The notes under the pieces are model-generated. The model did not search any database. It saw nothing but the letters and a program-made list of their open reading frames with translations, and was not told the origin of the DNA. From Bacillota bacterium (GTDB lineage Bacteria > Bacillota > Sulfobacillia > Thermaerobacterales > RSA17), in assembly GCA_017577485.2 (NCBI GenBank), contig PKRI02000005.1, positions 1,005 through 65,004 on the forward strand: a stretch of DNA of 64,000 nucleotides. The letters run 5' to 3'. Numbering within the stretch: position 1 is the first letter of the stretch; each line of letters opens with the position of its first letter. A program made the position numbers and the translations under genes. Below are positions 1 to 29,168 of the stretch, in pieces.

Positions 1-1829
1 ACCTCCACCAGGCCCAGGTAGGTTTCGGCCGCCGCCACCACGCGGTCGGCGCCGAAGGTCAGCTCCACGCCGCCGCCCAGGGTCATGCCGAAGGGCGCCA
101 CCACCACCGGCCGCGGGTGGAATCGCAGGCGCTGGTTCAGGCCCTGGAACAGGCGCACAACCGCGTCAAGCTCGTCCCACTCGCCCTCTTCGGCCAGGAA
201 GAGGATCTCCATCAGGTTGGCGCCCACGCAGAAGTTGGGGCGCACATGGCTTGAGATCACCAGGCCGCGCCAGTTGCGGGCGCTCTCGTCCAGCGCCACC
301 GATACGGCCTGCAGCATGTCGGCCCCGATGGCCTGCTTGGCCGAGTGGAAGTCCAGGTACAGCACCTCGTCGCCCAGGTCGTAAAGGGTGGCGCCGGCGT
401 TGCGGTAAACCACGCGGTTCTGCCGGGCCAGCCGCGCGGCGTCGATGACCCGCGGGTCTTCCGGGACGGCAATGACCTCGCCGCTGTAGGCGGCCTGGGT
501 CCGGGTCCCGTCGGTCCACCCGTAGAAGGCGCCGTGGGTCTCCGCCACCCGGCGGACCCATTCGGGGACCTGGTCGCCCTCCTGCTCCATGCGGGCCACC
601 GTCTCCCGCAGGCCCAGGGCGTCCCACAGCTCAAATGGACCCTGCTCCCAGCCGAAGCCCCACTTCATGGCCCGGTCGATGCCGGCGATGTCGTCGCTGA
701 TCTCGGGCGCTTTAGCCGCGGTGTAGAGCAGCACCCGCTTGGTCAGGGCCCAGGCGAAGCGCCCCGCGGCGTCGCCCGCGTTCACCAGGCGCCGCATCCG
801 CTCGGCGGGGTCGTCCAGGCCGGACACCGCCTGCAGGGAGACGGCCTGCAGCTTGCGCCGCGGCCGGTATTCCAGCGTGTCCAGGTCCAGCGCCAGGATC
901 TCGGTGCGGCCGTCCACCTTTTCCCGGCGGTAAAAGCCCTGACCGGACTTCTCGCCCAGCCAGCCCCGCTCCAGCATGGCCTCGAAGAAGGCGGGCAGGC
1001 GGAAGGCCTCGCGCTCGGCGGGATCACTGGTGGCTTCCTGCAGGTTGCGGGCCACGTTGGCGAACACGTCCAATCCGACGATGTCCAGGGTGCGGAAGGT
1101 GGCGCTCCTGGGCCGGCCCATGGGCGTGCCGGTGATGGTATCGACCTCGTCGGGGCCGAAACCGAACTCCCGCATCAGGTCCAGGGTGACCATCAGCCCG
1201 TAGCAGCCGATGCGGTTGGCGATGAAGTTGGGCGTGTCGCGGGCGATGACCACGCCCTTGCCCAGCCGGTCCTGGCCGAAGCGCCGGATCCGTTCCACCG
1301 CCTCGGGGTCGGTGTCGGCGGTGGGGATCACCTCCAGCAGCCGCAGGTACCGCGGCGGGTTGAAGAAGTGGGTGCCCAGGAAGCGGCGGCGCAGCGGCTC
1401 CGGCAGCGCCTGGGCGATGGCGGCGATGGAGATGCCCGAGGTGTTGGTGCTGAGCACGGCGTCGGGGCGAACGTGCCGGGCCGCCCGCGACCACAGCGCC
1501 TGCTTGGGCTCCAGCCGTTCCACTACGGCTTCGATGACCCAGTCGGCCTCGGCCAGGCGCGGCAGGTCGTCGTCGAAGTTGCCGGGACGCACCCGGTCGT
1601 AGGCCGACGGGTGCAGGGCGGGGGCCGGGTTCATGGTCCGCAGGCGCTGCAGGGCCTGGGCGGCCAGCCTGCTGCGGTCCCCGGGCTCCGGGGAACCGCC
1701 GCCGCCCGGTGCGGGAGGGACCAGGTCCAGCAGGTCGACGGTGCAGCCGAAACTGGCAAGCAGCACGGCGATCTGGGCGCCCATGGTTCCCGAGCCGAGG
1801 ACGGCGACGCGGCGAATGCGGTCAGGCAC
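1..1829 (-). CDS. fadN: Bifunctional 3-hydroxyacyl-CoA dehydrogenase / enoyl-CoA hydratase (FadN-like); 3' end runs off the left edge
   Basis: Absent from the ORF track because it is edge-truncated. My reverse-strand translation from GTG at 1829 gives VPDRIRRVAVLGSGTMGAQIAVLLA (Rossmann GxGxxG), HFFNPPRYLRLLEVIP and TPNFIANRIG (HADH signatures). Near the left edge it gives GANLMEI...PFGMTLGGGVEL (crotonase fold). RBS GAGGAGG at 1839-1845, 9 nt upstream. Confidence 0.85.
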   Translation of the reverse strand, partial: MPDRIRRVAVLGSGTMGAQIAVLLASFGCTVDLLDLVPPAPGGGGSPEPGDRSRLAAQALQRLRTMNPAPALHPSAYDRVRPGNFDDDLPRLAEADWVIEAVVERLEPKQALWSRAARHVRPDAVLSTNTSGISIAAIAQALPEPLRRRFLGTHFFNPPRYLRLLEVIPTADTDPEAVERIRRFGQDRLGKGVVIARDTPNFIANRIGCYGLMVTLDLMREFGFGPDEVDTITGTPMGRPRSATFRTLDIVGLDVFANVARNLQEATSDPAEREAFRLPAFFEAMLERGWLGEKSGQGFYRREKVDGRTEILALDLDTLEYRPRRKLQAVSLQAVSGLDDPAERMRRLVNAGDAAGRFAWALTKRVLLYTAAKAPEISDDIAGIDRAMKWGFGWEQGPFELWDALGLRETVARMEQEGDQVPEWVRRVAETHGAFYGWTDGTRTQAAYSGEVIAVPEDPRVIDAARLARQNRVVYRNAGATLYDLGDEVLYLDFHSAKQAIGADMLQAVSVALDESARNWRGLVISSHVRPNFCVGANLMEILFLAEEGEWDELDAVVRLFQGLNQRLRFHPRPVVVAPFGMTLGGGVELTFGADRVVAAAETYLGLVE

Positions 1830-1991: not shown

Positions 1992-3374
1992 TTGTTTGCT
2001 TGGCTCCTGTACGGAGGTTTCTCCCTGGCGGCGACGGCCGTGATGCTGGCGCTGCTGCTGGGCGCCGCCCGCCAGGGCAACCGGCGCGCGCGGCTCGTCA
2101 CCCTCACCATGGTGTGGCTTCTGCCGACGCACCTGCTGCTGGCCGTATCGGCCGTGGTCGCCCTGCTGGGGTGGGAGTGGGTTCACCCCTGGTGGCCTCT
2201 GGCCGACTGGGCGGCCCTGATGTTCATGGCCGGCCTGCTGCGGCTGGCCGTGGACGACTGGCTCGTGGCCGCCGGCCCCGGTGACGATCCGGCGCCGGCG
2301 CGGCGGCTCGCGAAACACCCGTGGGCCATCTACGTGCCGCCCGCGGTCCTGCTGCCCCTTTACCTGACCTGGTCCCTGGCGCCCCAGTCGGCCGTGGGGC
2401 GGCTGTGGTTCGGGCGCGCCGGCCACGACGGTGCGCTCCTGGTGGGGCTGAGCGCCATCTACATCCTGCTGGCCCTGCGGCTCTGGCGCGACGCCGCCCT
2501 GCAGCGCCCGGGCGCCCGCATCTGGCGCCGGGCCCTCCTGGTGGTAGTGGCGATCCACCTGGCCACCGAGGTCCTGGTGCCGCTGCTTCCCGACCGCATC
2601 CTGCCGGGCTGGCTGATCCAGACGGCCGCTGCGCTCCCGCATGCCATCGTGGTCCTGGGCTGTGCCGCCGGCAGCGCCGCGGACGGCCTGATCCGGCCTG
2701 GCCTGGCCGAGGGCATGGTGCGCTGGCTGACCGTGGTGACCGCCGCCGCCGTGGGCGTCGTGGGCGGCGGTGCCGTGGCACCCTTCGTGCCGGCTCCCTG
2801 GGATGCGACGCTGGCCGCCTTGAGCGGCGTGGTCCTCTTCGGGGCGACGGTGCAGGTCCTGCGGGCCTGGCTGGTATCCGCCGGCACCGGCGAGGACGTC
2901 CCGGCGCCGGCGGCGCCGGACGCGCACCCGGGGCTGTTCCTTGACCGGGCGGCGGCCGCCGCCGGGGCCGGTGCCGGGGCGGCATCGGCGCCGACCGGCA
3001 CGGCCAGGCTGCTGCTGGACGACCTGACCCCACGCCAGCGGGACGTGGTCCTGGCCGTCCTGGAGGGACTGAGCAACGCCGAGATCGCGGACCGGCTCTG
3101 CATCGCCGAGGTCACGGTCAAGAAGCACCTGACGGCGGTCTTTCAGAAACTGGGGGTATCCACCCGGGCCCAGTTGATCGCTTTCTGCTCCCGAGACGCG
3201 GCCCTGTGGACCTACCTGGCCGGATCGCCCGCCGGCTCTCCCCCCGGATCGCCCGCCGGCTCGCCGCCGCCCCTGCATCCCGGTGACCCGGCCGGCGGCC
3301 GGCGCCCGGCCGGAACCGGTCACCCCACCCCACCTGTTCACGACCACCTGGGACGGCCCGTGATTTTCGACTAA
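1992..3374 (+). CDS. Polytopic membrane protein with C-terminal LuxR/FixJ-type HTH domain
   Basis: This is the C-terminal two-thirds of track ORF 345..3374; the upstream part is antisense to fadN. It has many hydrophobic helices (LLYGGFSLAATAVMLALLLGAA, MVWLLPTHLLLAVSAVVALLGW, etc.). These are followed by LTPRQRDVVLAVLEGLSNAEIADRLCIAEVTVKKHLTAVFQKLGVSTRAQL (about 3024-3188). The TTG at 1992 with a G-rich RBS upstream is my best guess; ATG 2043 is an alternative. Confidence 0.7.
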   Translation: MFAWLLYGGFSLAATAVMLALLLGAARQGNRRARLVTLTMVWLLPTHLLLAVSAVVALLGWEWVHPWWPLADWAALMFMAGLLRLAVDDWLVAAGPGDDPAPARRLAKHPWAIYVPPAVLLPLYLTWSLAPQSAVGRLWFGRAGHDGALLVGLSAIYILLALRLWRDAALQRPGARIWRRALLVVVAIHLATEVLVPLLPDRILPGWLIQTAAALPHAIVVLGCAAGSAADGLIRPGLAEGMVRWLTVVTAAAVGVVGGGAVAPFVPAPWDATLAALSGVVLFGATVQVLRAWLVSAGTGEDVPAPAAPDAHPGLFLDRAAAAAGAGAGAASAPTGTARLLLDDLTPRQRDVVLAVLEGLSNAEIADRLCIAEVTVKKHLTAVFQKLGVSTRAQLIAFCSRDAALWTYLAGSPAGSPPGSPAGSPPPLHPGDPAGGRRPAGTGHPTPPVHDHLGRPVIFD

Positions 3375-3506: not shown

Positions 3507-4313
3507 TTGGGACTCCATGTGGCCGTGCTGATCAAGCAGGTGCTGGACCCTGAAGTCCCGGCCGCTCGCTTCCAGATCGACGCCTCGGGCAAGCGGCCCG
3601 CCGCGGGCATCGCCGGCGAGGTGCTGGGTCCGTACGAGCGCAACGCCCTGGAGGTGGCCCTGCAGCTGAAGGACGCCGGCGCGGCCGAGAAGGTTTCGGT
3701 GATCACCGCCGACGGGCAGGAGGCGGTGGAGTCGCTGCGCAAGGCGCTGGCCGTCCGGGCCGACCAGGCCGTGCTGGTGGACACCTCCGGTCACGACGAC
3801 CTGGACCCTGCCCAGACCGCCGAGATCCTGGCCCGCGCCGTCGAGAAACTGGGCGGCGTCGACCTGGTGGTGGCCGGCCGCCAGGCGGGCGACTGGGACC
3901 ATGGGCAGGTGGGCTACCTGGTGGCGGAGCGGTTGGGGTGGCCCTGCGTCTCCCTGGTGCAGCGCGCGGAGCTGGACGGCGGCGTGCTGCGGCTGACGCG
4001 GCAGGGCCCCGACGGCCGCGAGGTGGTGGAGGCGCGGCCGCCGCTGGTGGTGACCGTCACCAACGACGAGCGCAACGTGCTGCGGCTGCCGCGGGTCCAG
4101 GACCTGATGGCCTCCCGGCGCCAGCCCATCACCCAATGGTCGCCGGCGGACCTGGGCCTGGACGCCGCCGCCCTGGCGGACCTGGCCGGCGGCGAGGTGC
4201 TGCGGCTGCGGATCCCCGAGCGGGAGAGCCAGTGTGAATTCATCTCCGGCGACGACCCGGCCGAGGTGGCCGCCACGCTGGTCCGCCGGTTGAAAGAGTT
4301 GAAACTGCTGTGA
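3507..4313 (+). CDS. etfB: Electron transfer flavoprotein beta subunit
   Basis: TTG start with RBS GGGGAGG at 3492-3498. The sequence LHVAVLIKQVLDPEV...LVVAGRQAGDWDHGQVGYLVAERLGWPCVS is typical EtfB/FixA. The gene sits directly upstream of etfA. Confidence 0.9.
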   Translation: MGLHVAVLIKQVLDPEVPAARFQIDASGKRPAAGIAGEVLGPYERNALEVALQLKDAGAAEKVSVITADGQEAVESLRKALAVRADQAVLVDTSGHDDLDPAQTAEILARAVEKLGGVDLVVAGRQAGDWDHGQVGYLVAERLGWPCVSLVQRAELDGGVLRLTRQGPDGREVVEARPPLVVTVTNDERNVLRLPRVQDLMASRRQPITQWSPADLGLDAAALADLAGGEVLRLRIPERESQCEFISGDDPAEVAATLVRRLKELKLL

Positions 4314-4338
4314 TCCAGGCGCTGGGGGTGTTCCGTCG

Positions 4339-5298
4339 ATGATCGTCATCGCAGGTCGTGGTGGACAAGAACTCTCCAGGGCCCAGCGGGAACTGGTGAC
4401 GGTCGCCCGGCGCCTGGCCGGCGATCTGGGCAGCCAGGTGGCCTACCTGGCGGTGGGCCCGGAGGCCGAGGCGGCTGCCCGCCGTGCCGGCGCCTTCGGC
4501 ATCGGCCGGGCCGTCGCCATCGAGTTGAACGATGCGAGCGGTGCCGTGGAACCCATCATCGAGAACCTGGCTCAGGGTGCCCGGCGCCTGGGCGCGTCGG
4601 TGGTGCTGCTGGCCGCCGATCACCTGGGCGTGCAGGCCGGGCCGCGCCTGGCGGCGCGCCTGGGCGGGTCGGCCCTCAACGACGCGGTCGACGTCCGGGT
4701 CGAGGACGGGCGCGTGATCTGGACCCGGCCGGTCTTCGGCGGGAAGGCCCTGGCCGACGTGGTTCTGCGGCGTAGCCCGGCGGTGGTGACGGTTCGCTCC
4801 GGCGCCTTCGAGGCTGCCGAGGAGGGCGCGGGCGAAGCGGCCGTCGACGTGCTGGAGGCCGTCGCCGTCGATACCGCCGTCCGGGTCGTGCAGCGGGAGG
4901 AGGGCCGCCAGGAGGGCCCGCGCCTGGAGGAAGCCCGGGTGGTGGTCTCGGGCGGGCGCGGCCTCGGCGGGCCCGAAGGCTTCCAGCGACTGGCCGAGTT
5001 GGCGGAACTGCTGGGGGGTGCCGTCGGCGCCTCCCTGGCGGCGGTGGACGAGGGTTGGGCCCCGCCCGAATGGCAGGTGGGCCAGACCGGCAAGATGGTG
5101 GCGCCCGATGTCTACTTCGCCGTGGGCATCTCCGGCGCCAGCCAGCACCTGGCCGGGATCAGCGGGGCCAAGGCCGTGGTGGCCATCAACAAGAACCCGG
5201 ATGCTCCCATCTTCAAGGTCGCGAGGCTCGGGGTCGTCATGGAGTACGAAAAGCTGCTGCCGGCTCTGATCGAGGCGGTGAAGCGCGAGCTGGCCTGA
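4339..5298 (+). CDS. etfA: Electron transfer flavoprotein alpha subunit
   Basis: The C-terminal FAD-binding signature VVSGGRGLG...[27 protein letters not shown]...[13 protein letters not shown] is canonical EtfA. Confidence 0.9.
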
Positions 5299-16024: not shown

Positions 16025-17209
16025 GTGGCGATGGCCCGGCGCGTTGACAGCAGGCTTGACAGCCCCGCGGTCCCGGCGGGGACCCACGGGGTCCCAGGCC
16101 CGGCAACAGACCGCCCGCCGGTACAACCCGTGCCCAAGCGCCGGCAGGACGGTGGTGCGCTCCACCCCGGCGCCGCGGTCGACAACCCGCCGGTGCGCGA
16201 CGATCTGGCGGAACTGCTGCCGTGGCTGGCCCCGCCCGTGGCGCGGGCCCTGGCGGGCCTGTCGCCGGACGTCAGGGCCGGTGTGGAAGAGGTGCGGCTC
16301 CGCGCCGGACGCCCCCTGGAAGTGGTGACGGCTGCAGGCGGCCGGTTCGTGGCGCCCGACGGGCAGACCGTCGACGAGGAGGACGAGGCCCTGCCGGTCA
16401 CGCCCGGCCTGCTCGAGCAGACCTGGCAGATTGCCTGCGAGGCGTCGGTCTACAGCCGCGTCGACGAAACCCGGCACGGCTACCTCACCCTGCCGGGGGG
16501 GCACCGGGTGGGCGTGTCCGGGCGCCTGCTGGTGGAGGACGGGCGTATCCGGCGCCTGCGCCACGTGGGAGGCCTGAATTTCCGCCTGGCCCGGGAGCGG
16601 CCCGGATGCGCCGACCCGGTCCTTGATGCCGTCTGGGAGGCCGCCGCCGCACTGCCCCGCCACACCCTGATCCTCTCGCCGCCCGGGGCCGGGAAGACCA
16701 CGCTGCTGCGGGACCTGGTGCGCCAGCTTTCGCGGGGCGTGCCGGCACGGGGCATTCCCGGGCTGCGGGTCAGCGTGGTCGACGAGCGGGGCGAGCTGGC
16801 CGCCTGCCGGGACGGTGTGCCCACCCGCGACGTCGGGCCCCGCACCGATGTGCTGGACGGCTGTCCCAAAGCGGCGGGCATCGAGATGGCCGTGCGGGCC
16901 CTCAACCCCCAGGTGGTGGCCTTTGACGAACTGGGCGGGGCCCGGGACGCCCTGGCCGTGGAGGAGGCCGCCCATGCCGGCGTGCGGGTGCTGGCCACCG
17001 CCCACGCCGCCGACGAGGTGGACCTGGCCCGGCGCCCTTCCCTGGCCCGGCTGGTCCGGCAGGGGCTGTTCCAGCGGGTGGTGGTGCTGACCAGCAGGCC
17101 GCGGCCGGGGACCGTGCGGTATGCCGGGCCTCCCCGGGTGCCGGGGACCCGATCCCGGGATGCGTGGCTCGTCCGCCGCATCAGCCTCGAGGGCCGGGGG
17201 CTGCCGTGA
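16025..17209 (+). CDS. spoIIIAA: Stage III sporulation protein AA (ATPase)
   Basis: Walker A LILSPPGAGKTTLLRDL, then VVDERGELA and VVAFDELG. It is the first gene of an eight-gene spoIIIA-type array. The GTG start has RBS GGAGGGA 7 nt upstream, and the N-terminus is longer than in Bacillus. Confidence 0.85.
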   Translation: MAMARRVDSRLDSPAVPAGTHGVPGPATDRPPVQPVPKRRQDGGALHPGAAVDNPPVRDDLAELLPWLAPPVARALAGLSPDVRAGVEEVRLRAGRPLEVVTAAGGRFVAPDGQTVDEEDEALPVTPGLLEQTWQIACEASVYSRVDETRHGYLTLPGGHRVGVSGRLLVEDGRIRRLRHVGGLNFRLARERPGCADPVLDAVWEAAAALPRHTLILSPPGAGKTTLLRDLVRQLSRGVPARGIPGLRVSVVDERGELAACRDGVPTRDVGPRTDVLDGCPKAAGIEMAVRALNPQVVAFDELGGARDALAVEEAAHAGVRVLATAHAADEVDLARRPSLARLVRQGLFQRVVVLTSRPRPGTVRYAGPPRVPGTRSRDAWLVRRISLEGRGLP

Positions 17210-17733
17210 GCGCCTGGCTGCGCCTGGCCGGCGCGGTCCTGCTGGTGGGCGCCGGCTGGGCCCTGGGGGCGGCGGCTGCCCAGCGTCACCGGAGGCGTCC
17301 CCAGGAACTGGCGGCCCTGCGGACCGCCGTCCAGGTGCTGCTGACCGAGATCGACGTGGGCCTGACCCCCCTGCCCGAGGCCCTGGCCCGGGCAGGGGCG
17401 GCGGTGGGGTACCCGGTGGCCGCCCTGTTCGACGCGGCCCGCGGGGCCCTGGCCGGCGGCCGGGGCATCACCGGCGCCGAGGCCTGGCGGCGGGCGCTGG
17501 ACGAAGCGGCGCCGCTCCTGGCCCTGAACGCCGAGGACTGGGACATCCTGGCCGGCCTGGGAGCCTGTCTCGGACGGTCCGACCGGCAGGATCAGCGCCG
17601 CCACCTGCAGCTGGCGGCGGCCCGCCTGGATGCCGCCGAGCGCCGTGCCCGCCAGGGCTGGGAAGACCGCAGCCGGGTGGCGGTCTACCTGGGGACCCTG
17701 GGCGGGGCGCTGCTGGCGGTGGCGCTGCTGTAG
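17206..17733 (+). CDS. spoIIIAB: Stage III sporulation protein AB
   Basis: GTGA start/stop overlap with spoIIIAA. One N-terminal TM helix and a C-terminal TM flank a helical domain. Position in the operon supports the call. Confidence 0.8.
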   Translation: MSAWLRLAGAVLLVGAGWALGAAAAQRHRRRPQELAALRTAVQVLLTEIDVGLTPLPEALARAGAAVGYPVAALFDAARGALAGGRGITGAEAWRRALDEAAPLLALNAEDWDILAGLGACLGRSDRQDQRRHLQLAAARLDAAERRARQGWEDRSRVAVYLGTLGGALLAVALL

Positions 17734-17868
17734 GGGTGCCGCCGGCCGCCGGCCGCGGGAGGACGGCGCACGGCAGCTGCCGGCCGGGTGGACGAACCCG
17801 GACCGGCGCCACCCGCAGGACGGGCTGATCCGAGGGACGGGCGCAGCCCGCAGGACGGGGGTAACCCG

Positions 17869-18066
17869 TTGGAGCTCAAGATCATCCTGCAGATCGCCGG
17901 GGTCGGCCTGCTGGTGGCCGTGCTCCACAGCGTCCTCCGGCAGGCGGGCAAGGAAGAGTACGGCCACGTCGTCACCGTGGCCGGCGTGATCATCGTGTTC
18001 TGGCTGGTGGTCAACGCGCTGCGGGACCTGTTCCGGGCCGTCACCACCATCTTTCAGCTCCAGTGA
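17869..18066 (+). CDS. spoIIIAC: Stage III sporulation protein AC
   Basis: 65-aa two-TM protein (LELKIILQIAGVGLLVAVLHSVLRQAGKEEYGHVVTVAGVIIVFWLVVNALRDLF). The start is trimmed to an in-frame TTG with a G-rich RBS. Confidence 0.8.
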   Translation: MELKIILQIAGVGLLVAVLHSVLRQAGKEEYGHVVTVAGVIIVFWLVVNALRDLFRAVTTIFQLQ

Positions 18067-25802: not shown

Positions 25803-26046
25803 CTTCGAGCAGGCGCTGGCGGCGCTGGAAAAGATCGTGGACCGCCTGGAGCGCGAGGATCTGAGCCTGGAGCAGGCGCTGGCCCTGTTCGAGGAGGGCA
25901 TCGGCCTGGCCCGGTTCTGTTCCCAGCGCCTGGACGAGGCCGAGCGCAAGATCGAACTCCTGGTGGAGCAGCACGGCCAGGTCATCCTGGCCGCCGCGCC
26001 CGAGTTCGAGGTGAGCGATGAGCGAGCCCAGGATTCCCCGGCTTGA
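25762..26046 (+). CDS. xseB: Exodeoxyribonuclease VII small subunit
   Basis: [64 protein letters not shown] is 6 nt upstream. Confidence 0.9.
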
Positions 26047-26938
26047 CCTGAGCGAGACGTTCCAGGCGCGCTACGAGGCTTACCGGCGGCGGGTGGAGGA
26101 CGGCCTGGAGCGGCTGCTGCCGGCGGCGTCCCGCTGGCCCGAGCCCATCCACGAGGCCATGCGCTACGCGGTGTTTTCGGGCGGCAAGCGGCTGCGGCCG
26201 GTGCTGACGCTGGCCGCCTGCGAGCTGGCCGGGGGCAGCGTCGAGGCGGCGCTGCCGGCGGCCTGCGCCGTGGAACTGGTGCACACGTACTCGCTGGTCC
26301 ACGACGACCTGCCGGCCATGGACGACGACGACATGCGGCGCGGCCGGCCGACGGTGCACGTGGCCTACGATGAGGCCACCGCCATCCTGGCGGGCGACGC
26401 CCTGCTGACCCTGGCCTTCACCGTCCTGGCCGACCCGGACGGCCCGCTGACGCCCGCCGTTGCCCTGCGCATCGCGTTCGAGCTGGGTACCGCCGCCGGC
26501 ACCGCCGGGCTCATCGCCGGGCAGGTGGCCGATCTGGCCGCCGAGGGTGCCGCCGTCGACGGCCGGGAGCTGGAGCGCATCCACCGCCACAAGACGGGGG
26601 CGCTGTTCCGGGCCTGCGCCCGGATCGGCGCCATCGCCGCCGGCGCCGGACCGGCCGACGTGGAGCGGCTCTCCCGTTTTGCCGACGAATTCGGCCTGGC
26701 TTTCCAGATCACCGACGACATCCTGGACGTGGTGGGCGACGAGGCGGCCACCGGCCGACCCGCCGGCAGCGATGAGCGCCGCGGCAAGACCACCTTCGCC
26801 AGCCTGTACGGCGTGGAGACGGCGCGGCGCCTGGCGGTGGAGGCGGCGCAGCGGGCGGCGGCGGAACTGGAACCTTTCGGCGCCCGGGCCGGCTTCCTGC
26901 GCGACCTGGCGTTTTTCGCCGTCAGCCGCAGCGGCTGA
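26018..26938 (+). CDS. ispA: Farnesyl/geranyl diphosphate synthase
   Basis: First and second Asp-rich motifs are [19 protein letters not shown] and [16 protein letters not shown] is also present. Confidence 0.93.
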
Positions 26939-26980: not shown

Positions 26981-26988
26981 TGTATAAT
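26981..26988 (+). promoter_or_regulatory. -10 element (TG-TATAAT) for the large ncRNA
   Basis: TGTATAAT at 26981-26988, 43 nt after the ispA stop, in an otherwise GC-rich context. I found no convincing -35 at canonical spacing. Confidence 0.45.
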
Positions 26989-27009
26989 GGACACTGACAA
27001 CCGGGTTTG

Positions 27010-27682
27010 ACGGCAGGTGGTGGCAGTATCCTAGTCCGGCCGCCTTCCTGAAGGCGGGCCTAAAAATCCGCCGTCGGGCACATCGATGAAGTTCCTGGTG
27101 CCGGCCGCTGACGCCCAGTCGGGGGTCGGTGCTGGGAGTTAAGAGGGTGGGGCGATCTGCAAAGGCATGCAGGCGTTGACCCTACCCTCGCGGAGGCCCA
27201 AGTGCGTAGCCGACGGCCGCGGTCACGGCGGCGTCCGGCCGCCGGCCGCGGACCCGAGGCTATGGCTTGGGGTATGAACCTGCACGCGGGATGACTGTGT
27301 GCAGCGTAGCCTGCCCTGAGTGGGGCGTGGCGGATGGACCCGTGAAGCGCGCCGACCGCAGGGCCCGCGGAAGGCGCGTTTGGGCCGAAACCCGTCCTGC
27401 AAAACGGGCTAGGGAATGGTGAGCCGGCCGGGGAAAACCTCTAGGCTGTCCCGCAACGGGTCGTCTGCCGGGGATTAAAGTGTGTGCTAAGTGGTAATCT
27501 AGCCCCCTCTAAGTACCGGGAACGCCGGCTCCGGCCGGCGGGACCGGAACGGCGACGGGAGGGGCGCGGTCTGAAAGGGAAACCGCCGGGTCGGCAACGC
27601 CCGGTGACCGCGCGGGAAAGCCTGCTAGACCTAAGCCACAGCGTCTACCCGGCAGGCGCACCACCTGCATCCTTTTTTCAAT
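27010..27682 (+). ncRNA. ole: Large structured non-coding RNA, OLE (ornate, large, extremophilic) class candidate
   Basis: The 26939-27707 interval has no credible ORF. A perfect 10-bp closing helix pairs 27013-27022 (GCAGGTGGTG) with 27659-27668 (CACCACCTGC). Nested hairpins include 27040-27046/27051-27057 (CCTG loop), 27564-27570/27607-27613 and 27586-27590/27600-27604. AT-rich islands occur at 27473-27515. A T6 run lies at 27673-27678. The synteny folD-xseA-xseB-ispA-[RNA]-4TM protein-tlyA matches the published OLE locus. Confidence 0.75.
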
Positions 27683-27707
27683 GGGTCGTCACGCTGGAAG
27701 GGCCTGA

Positions 27708-28307
27708 ATGAAGCGCTCCAACAGCAAGTCCAACGTGGATTGGCGGCGCGCCGTAACCATCGGCGTGCTGACCTTTTTTGTGGCCGTCGCCTTCGCCTTT
27801 CCCTCGGGCCGGGCCACGGAAACCCTGGGCCTGTTCCCGGCGGTCCTGACGCTGCTGGTGATCATCCTGGTGGGCATCGCCTTCGACATCGTGGGCGTGG
27901 CGGCGGCGGCGGCCGACGAGAAGCCCTTCCACGCCATGGCGGCGGCCGACCGGCCCGGCGCCCGCCAGGCCATCTGGATCGTCCGCAACGCCGACGCGGT
28001 GGTGTCGTTCTGCAACGACGTGGTGGGCGACGTGGCGGGTACCTTGAGCGGTGCCGCCGGCGCCGCCATCGTGGTGCGGGTCCTGGCGCTGCGGCCCGGG
28101 CTGGACGAGACGCTCATGTCGGTGCTGATGGTGGGACTGGTGGCGGCGCTGACGGTGGGCGGCAAAGCCGCCGGCAAGGGCTTCGCCCTGAACCAGTCCA
28201 CCAACATCGTCTACGCGGCGGCCCGGGTGCTTCACATCCTGGAGAAGGCCGGCCTGGTGCGGCTGCAGGTGCGCCGGTCGCGGCGGCCGGCGCGCAACGC
28301 CCACTGA
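27708..28307 (+). CDS. oapA: OLE-associated membrane protein A candidate (four TM helices)
   Basis: 199 aa with four predicted TM helices (AVTIGVLTFFVAVAFAF; LFPAVLTLLVIILVGIAFDIVGV; VVSFCNDVVGDVAGTLSGAAGAAIVV; LMSVLMVGLVAALTVGG). It starts 26 nt after the RNA's T-run, behind RBS GGAAGGG. The position is identical to oapA in OLE loci. Confidence 0.7.
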   Translation: MKRSNSKSNVDWRRAVTIGVLTFFVAVAFAFPSGRATETLGLFPAVLTLLVIILVGIAFDIVGVAAAAADEKPFHAMAAADRPGARQAIWIVRNADAVVSFCNDVVGDVAGTLSGAAGAAIVVRVLALRPGLDETLMSVLMVGLVAALTVGGKAAGKGFALNQSTNIVYAAARVLHILEKAGLVRLQVRRSRRPARNAH

Positions 28308-28310
28308 GCC

Positions 28311-29168
28311 ATGGACGGGTCCCGGGGCGGCCCGCCGGAGTCGCCGGCGCCGCGTTCCCACCGCCGGCGCCTGGATGTGCTGCTGGTGGAGCGGGGGCTG
28401 TTCCCGTCGCGGGCCCGGGCCCAGGCGGCGGTGCTGGCCGGGCATGTGTACGTGGACGGCCGCCCTGCCTCCAAGCCCGGCGAGATGGTGGCCGCCGGCG
28501 CCCACCTGGAGGTGCGCGGCGACCCGGTGCCCTACGCCAGCCGCGGCGGCCTCAAGCTGGCCCACGCGCTGGACGTGTTCGGCATCGACGCGGCGGGGCG
28601 GGTGGCGGTGGACGTGGGGGCGTCCACGGGCGGTTTCACCGACGTGCTGCTGCAGCGCGGCGCCCGCCGTGTTTACGCCGTGGACGTGGGCTACGGCCAG
28701 CTGGCCTGGCGCCTCCGCAGCGATCCCCGCGTGACGGTCATGGACCGCACCAACGCCCGTCACCTGGCGCCGGAGATGTTCCCGGAGCGGCCGGACCTGG
28801 CCGTGGTGGACGTCAGCTTCATCTCGGTGGCCAAGATCCTGCCCGCCCTGGCGCGGGTGCTGGTGCCGCCCGGCGACGTGGTGTCGCTGGTCAAGCCCCA
28901 GTTCGAGGCCGGTCCTGAGCGGGTGGGCAAGGGCGGCGTGGTCCGCGACGCCGGGGTCCACCTGGAGGTGATGGTGCGCCTGGCCCGGGAGGCCCGGTCC
29001 CAGGGCTTTGCCGTGCGGGCCATGACCTGGTCGCCGGTGCGGGGCGGCGCCGGCAACCTGGAATTCTTCCAGTGGTGGTCCCTGGACGCCGCCGGCGGCC
29101 TTGAGGGGCCGGCGCTGGAGGAGGAGGCGCGCCGTGCCGTCCGGGAAGGCTGGGAGCGGGTAACCTGA
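28311..29168 (+). CDS. tlyA: TlyA-family 16S/23S rRNA (cytidine-2'-O)-methyltransferase
   Basis: S4 domain (RLDVLLVERGLFPSRARAQAAVLAGHVYVDG), SAM motif VDVGASTGGFTD and LVKPQFEAG. Confidence 0.9.
   Translation: MDGSRGGPPESPAPRSHRRRLDVLLVERGLFPSRARAQAAVLAGHVYVDGRPASKPGEMVAAGAHLEVRGDPVPYASRGGLKLAHALDVFGIDAAGRVAVDVGASTGGFTDVLLQRGARRVYAVDVGYGQLAWRLRSDPRVTVMDRTNARHLAPEMFPERPDLAVVDVSFISVAKILPALARVLVPPGDVVSLVKPQFEAGPERVGKGGVVRDAGVHLEVMVRLAREARSQGFAVRAMTWSPVRGGAGNLEFFQWWSLDAAGGLEGPALEEEARRAVREGWERVT

Follow-up and report, generated by a model that had tools for sequence, protein, structure and literature searches.

We found that the 769-nt gap downstream of ispA in the window, a 64-kb stretch of DNA from an uncultured Bacillota lineage, very probably (about 96%) encodes a functional, full-length OLE RNA, and that the gene following it encodes the membrane partner of this RNA, OapA. 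The window OLE is an ordinary representative of this known family, apart from one small additional hairpin specific to the lineage. All coordinates below refer to the + strand.

OLE RNA in the ispA-oapA gap

The ispA gene (farnesyl diphosphate synthase, 26018–26938; NF045485, 338 bits; PF00348) ends with a stop codon at 26936–26938, and the next ATG is located at 27708, reproducing the gap bounds given in a preliminary description of this DNA. That description had found no plausible ORF in the 769 nt between them. ORFs of 51–75 aa do exist there; their GC3 values of 0.61–0.73, versus 0.93–0.94 for ispA, oapA and tlyA, are those of non-coding DNA, so the claim stands and a coding reading of the gap was dropped. 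The GC content of the gap was 67%, versus 72.4% for the whole window.

An OLE-class structured RNA had been proposed for this gap, with a search by the Rfam OLE covariance model as the way to check it. We ran cmscan with Rfam 15 and obtained OLE (RF01071) at 27002–27680 as the sole match in the whole window. It scored 397.2 bits (gathering score, 50) with E 3.4e-113, so that the structure lies far outside what chance would give. The match covered model positions 1–616 of 616 and was not truncated. The alignment had no deletions over model positions 279–385, indicating that P7–P9 are present and that the RNA is of the full-length type. The strongly conserved OLE blocks GCAGUAUCCUAGUC, CCUAAAAAUCCGCC, GGGCACAUCGAUGAAGU, GGAUUAAAGUG, CUAAGUGGUAAUC, AAAGGGAAACCGCC and GACCUAAGCC were all present in the alignment, and such blocks served as anchors for the length comparison among homologs. 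The AT-rich stretch around 27473–27515, earlier guessed to be conserved, turned out to be the GGAUUAAAGUG to CUAAGUGGUAAUC block, which is invariant in the Rfam consensus. Three local helices noted previously (27040–27046/27051–27057, 27564–27570/27607–27613 and 27586–27590/27600–27604) were each perfectly complementary.

From P1 to P1, the window OLE measured 656 nt. Its core, from GCAGUAU to GACCUAAG, was 605 nt long, the longest among about 54 OLEs measured (median 565). The extra core length came from two insertions, at 27212–27257 and 27511–27549. These two hairpin insertions also account for the bit score of the window copy, which lay at the low end of the 381–522 bits that RF01071 gave on ten comparison loci. 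The insertion at 27212–27257 is a GC-rich extension of a variable-length stem, seen as an insert in the Rfam alignment (46 nt versus 15 in the consensus). The anchor-to-anchor segment holding it was 54 nt in the window and 11–122 nt (median 25) in homologs, and we regard the extension as ordinary, unremarkable stem-length variation.

A 10-bp long-range helix had also been claimed. It needed a separate test, because the Rfam consensus structure leaves both termini unpaired. The 5' strand GCAGGUGGUG (27013–27022) and the 3' strand CACCACCUGC (27659–27668) were complementary at 10 of 10 positions. The large majority of 53 OLE homologs had a 7–12-bp helix in the same register, located directly 5' of GCAGUAU and 11 nt past the conserved UUUACYC block. 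In an alignment of 40 lineages, 84.6% of the helix cells were paired, versus 35–56% when the partner was slid by 1–3 columns, and 11 of the 12 pairs showed compensatory changes on both sides. The covariation score was 0.616, a value reached by 0 of 500 shuffles; slid controls gave at most 0.25. Thus, the helix is real and covaries over these 40 lineages. Going by the text description in PMC3413148, however, it appears to correspond to the P1 closing stem already named there.

Putative expression signals were found on both sides of the RNA. The sequence TGTATAAT, reported to open the interval, was found at 26981–26988 and contains a perfect TATAAT −10 box (26983–26988) about 24 nt 5' of P1. The element (C/G)TGTATAATG was kept in all five lineage relatives having upstream sequence, while the flanking bases had diverged. 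A sigma-70 promoter scan returned no full site, and no convincing −35 element was found. A dedicated ole promoter just 5' of P1 has been shown experimentally in B. halodurans (PMC3413148), and the conserved TATAAT box fits the role of a putative ole promoter consistent with it. At the other end, the small hairpin 27652–27656/27664–27668 and the T6 tract (27673–27678), described earlier as closing the interval, were present and were also flagged by a terminator scan; among relatives, the U-rich tail showed loose conservation only. In the Rfam structure, the 5' arm of this hairpin is engaged in a long helix (27462–27472/27648–27658), and its 3' arm is the 3' strand of P1. The classical terminator reading of the small hairpin plus T6 was therefore rejected, since both arms are used by conserved OLE helices; the hairpin would form only transiently or as an alternative structure competing with the native fold. 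The T6 tract after P1 may still be a weak intrinsic terminator or mark the 3' end. The weak hairpin, or P1, together with the U-tract would probably terminate most transcripts, and read-through past P1 would supply oapA mRNA. A Shine-Dalgarno-like site for oapA, GGAAGGG, is located at 27696–27702, and this element (GGAAGGAC/GAAAGGAC) was retained in relatives.

We compared the locus with those of its relatives. Between the window and three relatives (L087, L089 and L090), the OLE sequences were 93–94% identical, whereas ispA, oapA and tlyA were 79–85% identical; for the more distant L095, the values were 80% for OLE and 56–68% for the flanking genes. The OLE RNA is under stronger nucleotide-level constraint than the neighbouring coding genes, which argues against the view that this copy is a decaying, non-functional relic with lost dxs linkage and an altered OapB site. 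The low bit score, the replacement of the P13 bulge and the loss of dxs (both described below) would suit such a relic. However, the score is explained by the two hairpin insertions, the full model is covered with its conserved nucleotides intact, and conservation extends to P1, the GNRA loops and the promoter box; we consider a relic very improbable. We give still less credence to the idea that the gap holds no stand-alone ncRNA and is instead either an extended, structured 5' leader of the riboswitch or attenuator kind or a coding region for small proteins. Its position directly 5' of oapA and its terminator-like element would agree with a leader, and the existence of the 51–75-aa ORFs with small proteins; against these stand the end-to-end OLE match, the occurrence of OLE as a discrete, stable and abundant RNA in B. 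halodurans (PMC3413148), and the non-coding GC3 of the ORFs. A functional OLE RNA is thus the preferred reading.

OapA and its gene neighbourhood

The oapA gene (27708–28307) starts with an ATG that is separated from the 3' end of the OLE match by 27 nt. It encodes a 199-aa, four-helix membrane protein with a DxxxD motif (D104–D108) and a basic C-terminal tail. In the literature, OapA is defined as the product of the gene that directly follows ole. The protein spans the membrane with four helices, carries a DxxxD motif, adopts a CNNM-like fold akin to that of MpfA/CorB and has a cluster of basic residues on its cytoplasmic side (PMC11332333, PMC12265935; for the motif definition, PMC11332333). 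The preliminary description had taken the 199-aa protein as OapA and had proposed a BLASTP comparison. With the OapA sequence of the 2025 cryo-EM paper (Supplementary Table 4, PMC12286853), BLASTP gave 49% identity over 135 aa (E 7e-34), and the window motif NDVVGD aligned with NDVIGD of the published protein. Residues D104 and D108 were invariant in 24 diverse homologs. Hydrophobic windows were located at residues 12–36, 35–71, 105–128 and 130–157, and an AlphaFold2 model (pLDDT 75, pTM 0.65) placed four long helices at 12–39, 42–68, 95–128 and 134–162. Thus, the earlier identification was borne out, and the protein shows each sequence and fold feature of OapA; its sole difference from published OapA, which is likewise about 200 aa long, is sequence divergence.

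The model was also searched against the PDB by fold. Ranks 1–6 were all CNNM/CorB/CorC proteins, including CorB (7M1T/7M1U) and CorC (7CFF/7CFG), with probabilities of 0.94–1.00, TMq of 0.43–0.55 and weak E-values of 0.03–0.75. Searching the PDB with a sequence profile yielded nothing better than noise (E above 0.3), and Pfam and NCBIfam scans of the protein gave zero domains, with CNNM (PF01595) below threshold. Pfam and NCBIfam have no curated OapA model, so the identity of the protein was shown by the other means described above. A CNNM relationship of the window OapA is therefore suggested at the fold level only, with weak E-values. MpfA/CorB/CNNM Mg2+ transporters share the transmembrane-domain fold, with 7M1T, 7M1U and 7CFF as the top matches. 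The window OapA differs from them in having no CBS or CorC domains, four helices versus three in CorB, and a DxxxD motif. An assignment as such a transporter was rejected, because PF01595 stayed below threshold and the protein is too short for a CBS pair plus CorC_HlyC domains.

Homologs of the 199-aa protein numbered 921 in a large protein collection, some of them labelled CNNM or DUF21 by their sources. We examined 80 homolog loci, which came from GTDB species representatives among the matches listed. By nhmmer, OLE was located directly upstream of the oapA homolog in 77 of the 80, and one of the three remaining loci simply has no upstream DNA. The best GTDB-representative OapA among the matches listed was 50% identical to the window protein; these matches lay outside the window's own lineage, whose close relatives were gathered by exact-protein look-ups. 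Identical proteins occur in several 'Bacillota bacterium' MAGs and in one 'Thermaerobacter sp.' deposit; public deposits of the organism annotate OapA as 'hypothetical protein'.

The gene order in the window is efp, spoIIIA operon, asp23/amaP, nusB, folD, xseA, xseB, ispA, OLE, oapA, tlyA, MFS transporter and pxpABC. The run efp...nusB-folD-xseAB-ispA is classic Bacillota synteny and the usual setting of OLE; with the spoIIIA operon, this B. subtilis-like order places the host within the Bacillota range of OLE. Domain scans upheld the claimed context folD-xseA-xseB-ispA-ole-oapA-tlyA, with tlyA (rRNA 2'-O-methyltransferase, 28311–29168; TIGR00478, 257 bits) starting 4 nt after oapA. The absence of dxs had also been reported correctly, and this arrangement is unusual, being shared by only about 4% of the loci compared. 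Of the 80 homolog loci, taken from the matches listed, about 70 had the oapA-dxs arrangement, and only two Tissierellaceae MAGs (L049 and L080) had oapA-tlyA without dxs. In all close relatives of the window, dxs was missing between oapA and tlyA. When a putative DXS (the ORF that follows oapA in L061) served as tblastn query, the 64 kb gave no match. Neither tblastn with published OapC and bS21 nor Pfam scans covering 40 window ORFs revealed another OLE-RNP partner or MpfA in the 64 kb. For OapB and OapC this is expected, since their genes are normally unlinked to ole.

A lineage-specific hairpin at the P13 bulge

P13 is the primary OapB site and consists of a stem, one bulged nucleotide, 2 bp and a GNRA tetraloop, the last of these docking into P12.2 (PMC7936274). 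The single-nucleotide bulge, 2 bp below the tetraloop, is highly conserved, is critical for OapB binding in B. halodurans and was called 'a major specificity determinant' for OapB; in the crystal structure, the bulged base is extrahelical (PMC7936274). Following PMC7936274, we assigned P13 to 27505–27563 from the lineage consensus and single-sequence folds, with a base stem at 27505–27510/27558–27563 and a 2-bp top carrying a GCGA (GNRA) loop at 27550–27557. The base stem was invariant in the window lineage. The top, CG-GCGA-CG, was retained, with a loop of GCGA, GUGA or GCAA among relatives, always GNRA. The single-nucleotide bulge was absent as such, and its position was taken by a 39-nt hairpin branch (27511–27549). 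This branch contains CCGG (27516–27519/27544–27547) and CGCCGGC (27523–27529/27534–27540) stems and a UCCG loop, and its folding energy was −25.6 kcal/mol (z = −3.5).

Anchor distances placed the insertion within the window lineage. The distance from CUAAGUGGUAAUC to AAAGGGAAACCGCC was 74 nt in the window and 73–96 nt in 7 of 7 close relatives, whose OapA is 63–90% identical to that of the window, versus 34–37 nt in 68 of 68 other OLEs. Across the lineage, the inserted hairpin was 39–62 nt long and variable in sequence. The standard P13 with a one-nucleotide bulge fits the reference OLEs, including that of Thermaerobacter marianensis. A metagenome scan for an enlarged P13 segment returned the window lineage and two unrelated OLEs, L097 (56% GC) and L098 (41% GC), which matched Rfam OLE at 419 and 381 bits, respectively, and carried an 18–20-nt mini-hairpin at the same P13 position. 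The P13 bulge is thus a recurrent insertion point, as is structurally plausible given the extrahelical position of the bulged base in the crystal.

Alternatively, the branch could be a product of misassembly, or a random insertion that plays no structural part. Its covariation is weak: RNAalifold on the seven lineage sequences, which align poorly, gave double changes in 2 of 9 predicted stem pairs, and 3 of the 7 hairpins had z-scores of only about −1. Against these readings, at least 10 independent assemblies, made from different samples, contain the branch, and two unrelated lineages have an analogous insertion at this very point. The position of the branch is constant, and it can always fold into a hairpin while varying in sequence and length (39–62 nt) between an invariant base stem and an invariant GNRA top. 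We therefore consider either origin unlikely and favour a structured branch.

We found no description of the P13 hairpin insertion in the text of the OLE papers that we read. Replacement of the bulge by a 39–62-nt hairpin may make P13 a three-way junction that keeps its GNRA loop. If undescribed, this junction would mark a permissive, solvent-exposed point of the RNP and would predict a co-adapted OapB or OapB-independent folding; we put this proposal forward tentatively, as possible rather than probable.

Comparison with known OLE systems and implications

The window OLE resembles the OLEs of Halalkalibacterium halodurans and Clostridium acetobutylicum in its full covariance-model match, conserved blocks and P1 closure. 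It shares with the full-length class the P12.2/P13/P14/P15 junction, two GNRA loops, a proximal promoter and the ispA-oapA position. It departs from that class in its 656-nt P1-to-P1 length, the 46-nt GC-rich stem extension, the 39-nt P13 hairpin and its 67% GC. Lineage-specific departures, some at the OapB site in P13, are also known from OLE 'variant 1' and 'variant 2' (Fernando & Breaker 2024). These variants are reductions, with P7–P9 shortened or lost and the P13 tip lost, whereas the window RNA is full-length and has an addition in P13. Variant 1 lacks the whole OapB site, indicating that the P13 bulge is not family-defining.

Thermaerobacter marianensis DSM 12885 (CP002344), a thermophilic member of the Bacillota, is similar to the window in its very high GC content (locus 74%) and in the order folD-xseA-xseB-ispA-OLE-oapA. 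In its OLE (445 bits), P13 is of the standard form, with a one-nucleotide bulge where the window has the hairpin, and the locus keeps dxs between oapA and tlyA, unlike the window. Its OapA is only about 50% identical to that of the window and has a long C-terminal tail. A special value of the window as a very-high-GC, thermophile-like OLE, as suggested earlier, was overstated, because this cultured organism already provides a standard OLE and the family is catalogued, with OLE reported in 2,822 GTDB genomes (PMC11332333). Recent OLE consensus models comprise 1,517 unique sequences (PMC12054373).

Work on OLE function and partners (PMC3413148, PMC7936274, PMC9723947, PMC11332333, PMC12265935, PMC12286853) allows a conditional outline for this lineage, by analogy with H. 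halodurans and Clostridium. OLE would be transcribed from its own promoter, fold and dimerise. OapA, a CNNM-like putative divalent-cation transporter, would anchor the RNA to or in the membrane. With OapA, OapB and OapC, the RNA would form an RNP that helps cells to withstand stress, for example from alcohol, cold, too much Mg2+ or poor carbon sources. In the uncultured window lineage, this RNP would carry an extra hairpin in place of the bulged P13 nucleotide and would retain the GNRA loop recognised by OapB.

The main worth of the analysis is correct annotation: a known RNA accounts for the 769-nt gap, and a 'hypothetical protein' is OapA. The window OLE is detectable by standard annotation tools. 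Two features go beyond routine annotation, namely the hairpin branch that occupies the OapB bulge site of P13 and the lost oapA-dxs linkage, and neither offers a better test of the biochemical function of OLE than the available model organisms. That dxs is missing from an otherwise near-universal oapA-dxs pair indicates that this linkage is dispensable. The hairpin insertions at the P13 bulge in three lineages show a place where OLE accepts extra sequence, which could be of use in tagging or engineering the RNA. These natural insertions also bear on how strictly OapB requires the bulge.

Genes accompanying the OLE locus

The remainder of the window (1-64000) consists of ordinary housekeeping genes. 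It encodes ETF alpha/beta with a CCG/Fe-S protein, an HD-domain protein, EF-P, ArsR with a P-type ATPase, the spoIIIA operon, pxpABC, a branched-chain amino-acid ABC transporter, HpaB, Fur and a CitMHS transporter. Genes for OapB, OapC, bS21 and MpfA were not found among the scanned ORFs of the window (1-64000). Three ORFs, at 16480-17967 (−), 1210-1602 (+) and 2459-3121 (−), had no Pfam match; their GC3 values of 0.88-0.95 resembled those of this genome's genes. The first, of 495 aa, lies on the minus strand in the region expected for the plus-strand spoIIIA genes and may be spurious.

Within codons 1-25 of oapA, a scan also flagged a terminator-like element (27744-27779) in which T6 follows a GC-rich hairpin of 10 bp. 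Since this T-run codes for the conserved LTFF in the first transmembrane helix of OapA, the resemblance to a terminator is probably coincidental.

Gene order and OapA homologs in other genomes

Apart from the window, oapA was followed directly by tlyA, with no dxs between them, at only two loci among 80 genomes, both in Tissierellaceae MAGs (L049 and L080), in which dxs appears to have been independently lost from the OLE cluster or relocated. The gap between ispA and oapA is 769 nt in the window, whereas it is ~1040 nt in Thermaerobacter marianensis (CP002344), where a GC-rich spacer of ~340 nt with no called gene (locus L100, 2960-3300) separates the ispA stop from the OLE start.

At three comparison loci (L035, L084 and L101, the last at 4001-4777), the OapA homolog lacked an upstream OLE; these homologs could represent orphan paralogs of OapA, or relatives independent of OLE. 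One of them, the 258-aa P0072 (GCA_030019365.1), adjoins ETF/CCG genes and has an upstream spacer of just 125 nt.

P1 junction and P13 bulge

At 27013-27035, where P1 meets the first conserved block, the RNA of this lineage carries one additional G (GGUGGUGGCAGUAU). The junction, GUGGYGCAGUAU, is otherwise invariant, and the window lineage departs from it by this single G. Rfam aligned GGUGGUGGCAGUAU without a gap; therefore, P1 of the window is shifted by one nucleotide relative to other OLE RNAs.

Two unrelated metagenomic OLE RNAs, L097 (7171-7250; contig 56% GC; Rfam 419 bits) and L098 (671-752; contig 41% GC; Rfam 381 bits), each contained a mini-hairpin at the P13 bulge. These hairpins are 18-20 nt long, compared with 39 nt for the window branch (27511-27549), and occupy the identical position. 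Because all three RNAs carry a hairpin there, the P13 bulge is an insertion point used repeatedly in OLE RNAs.
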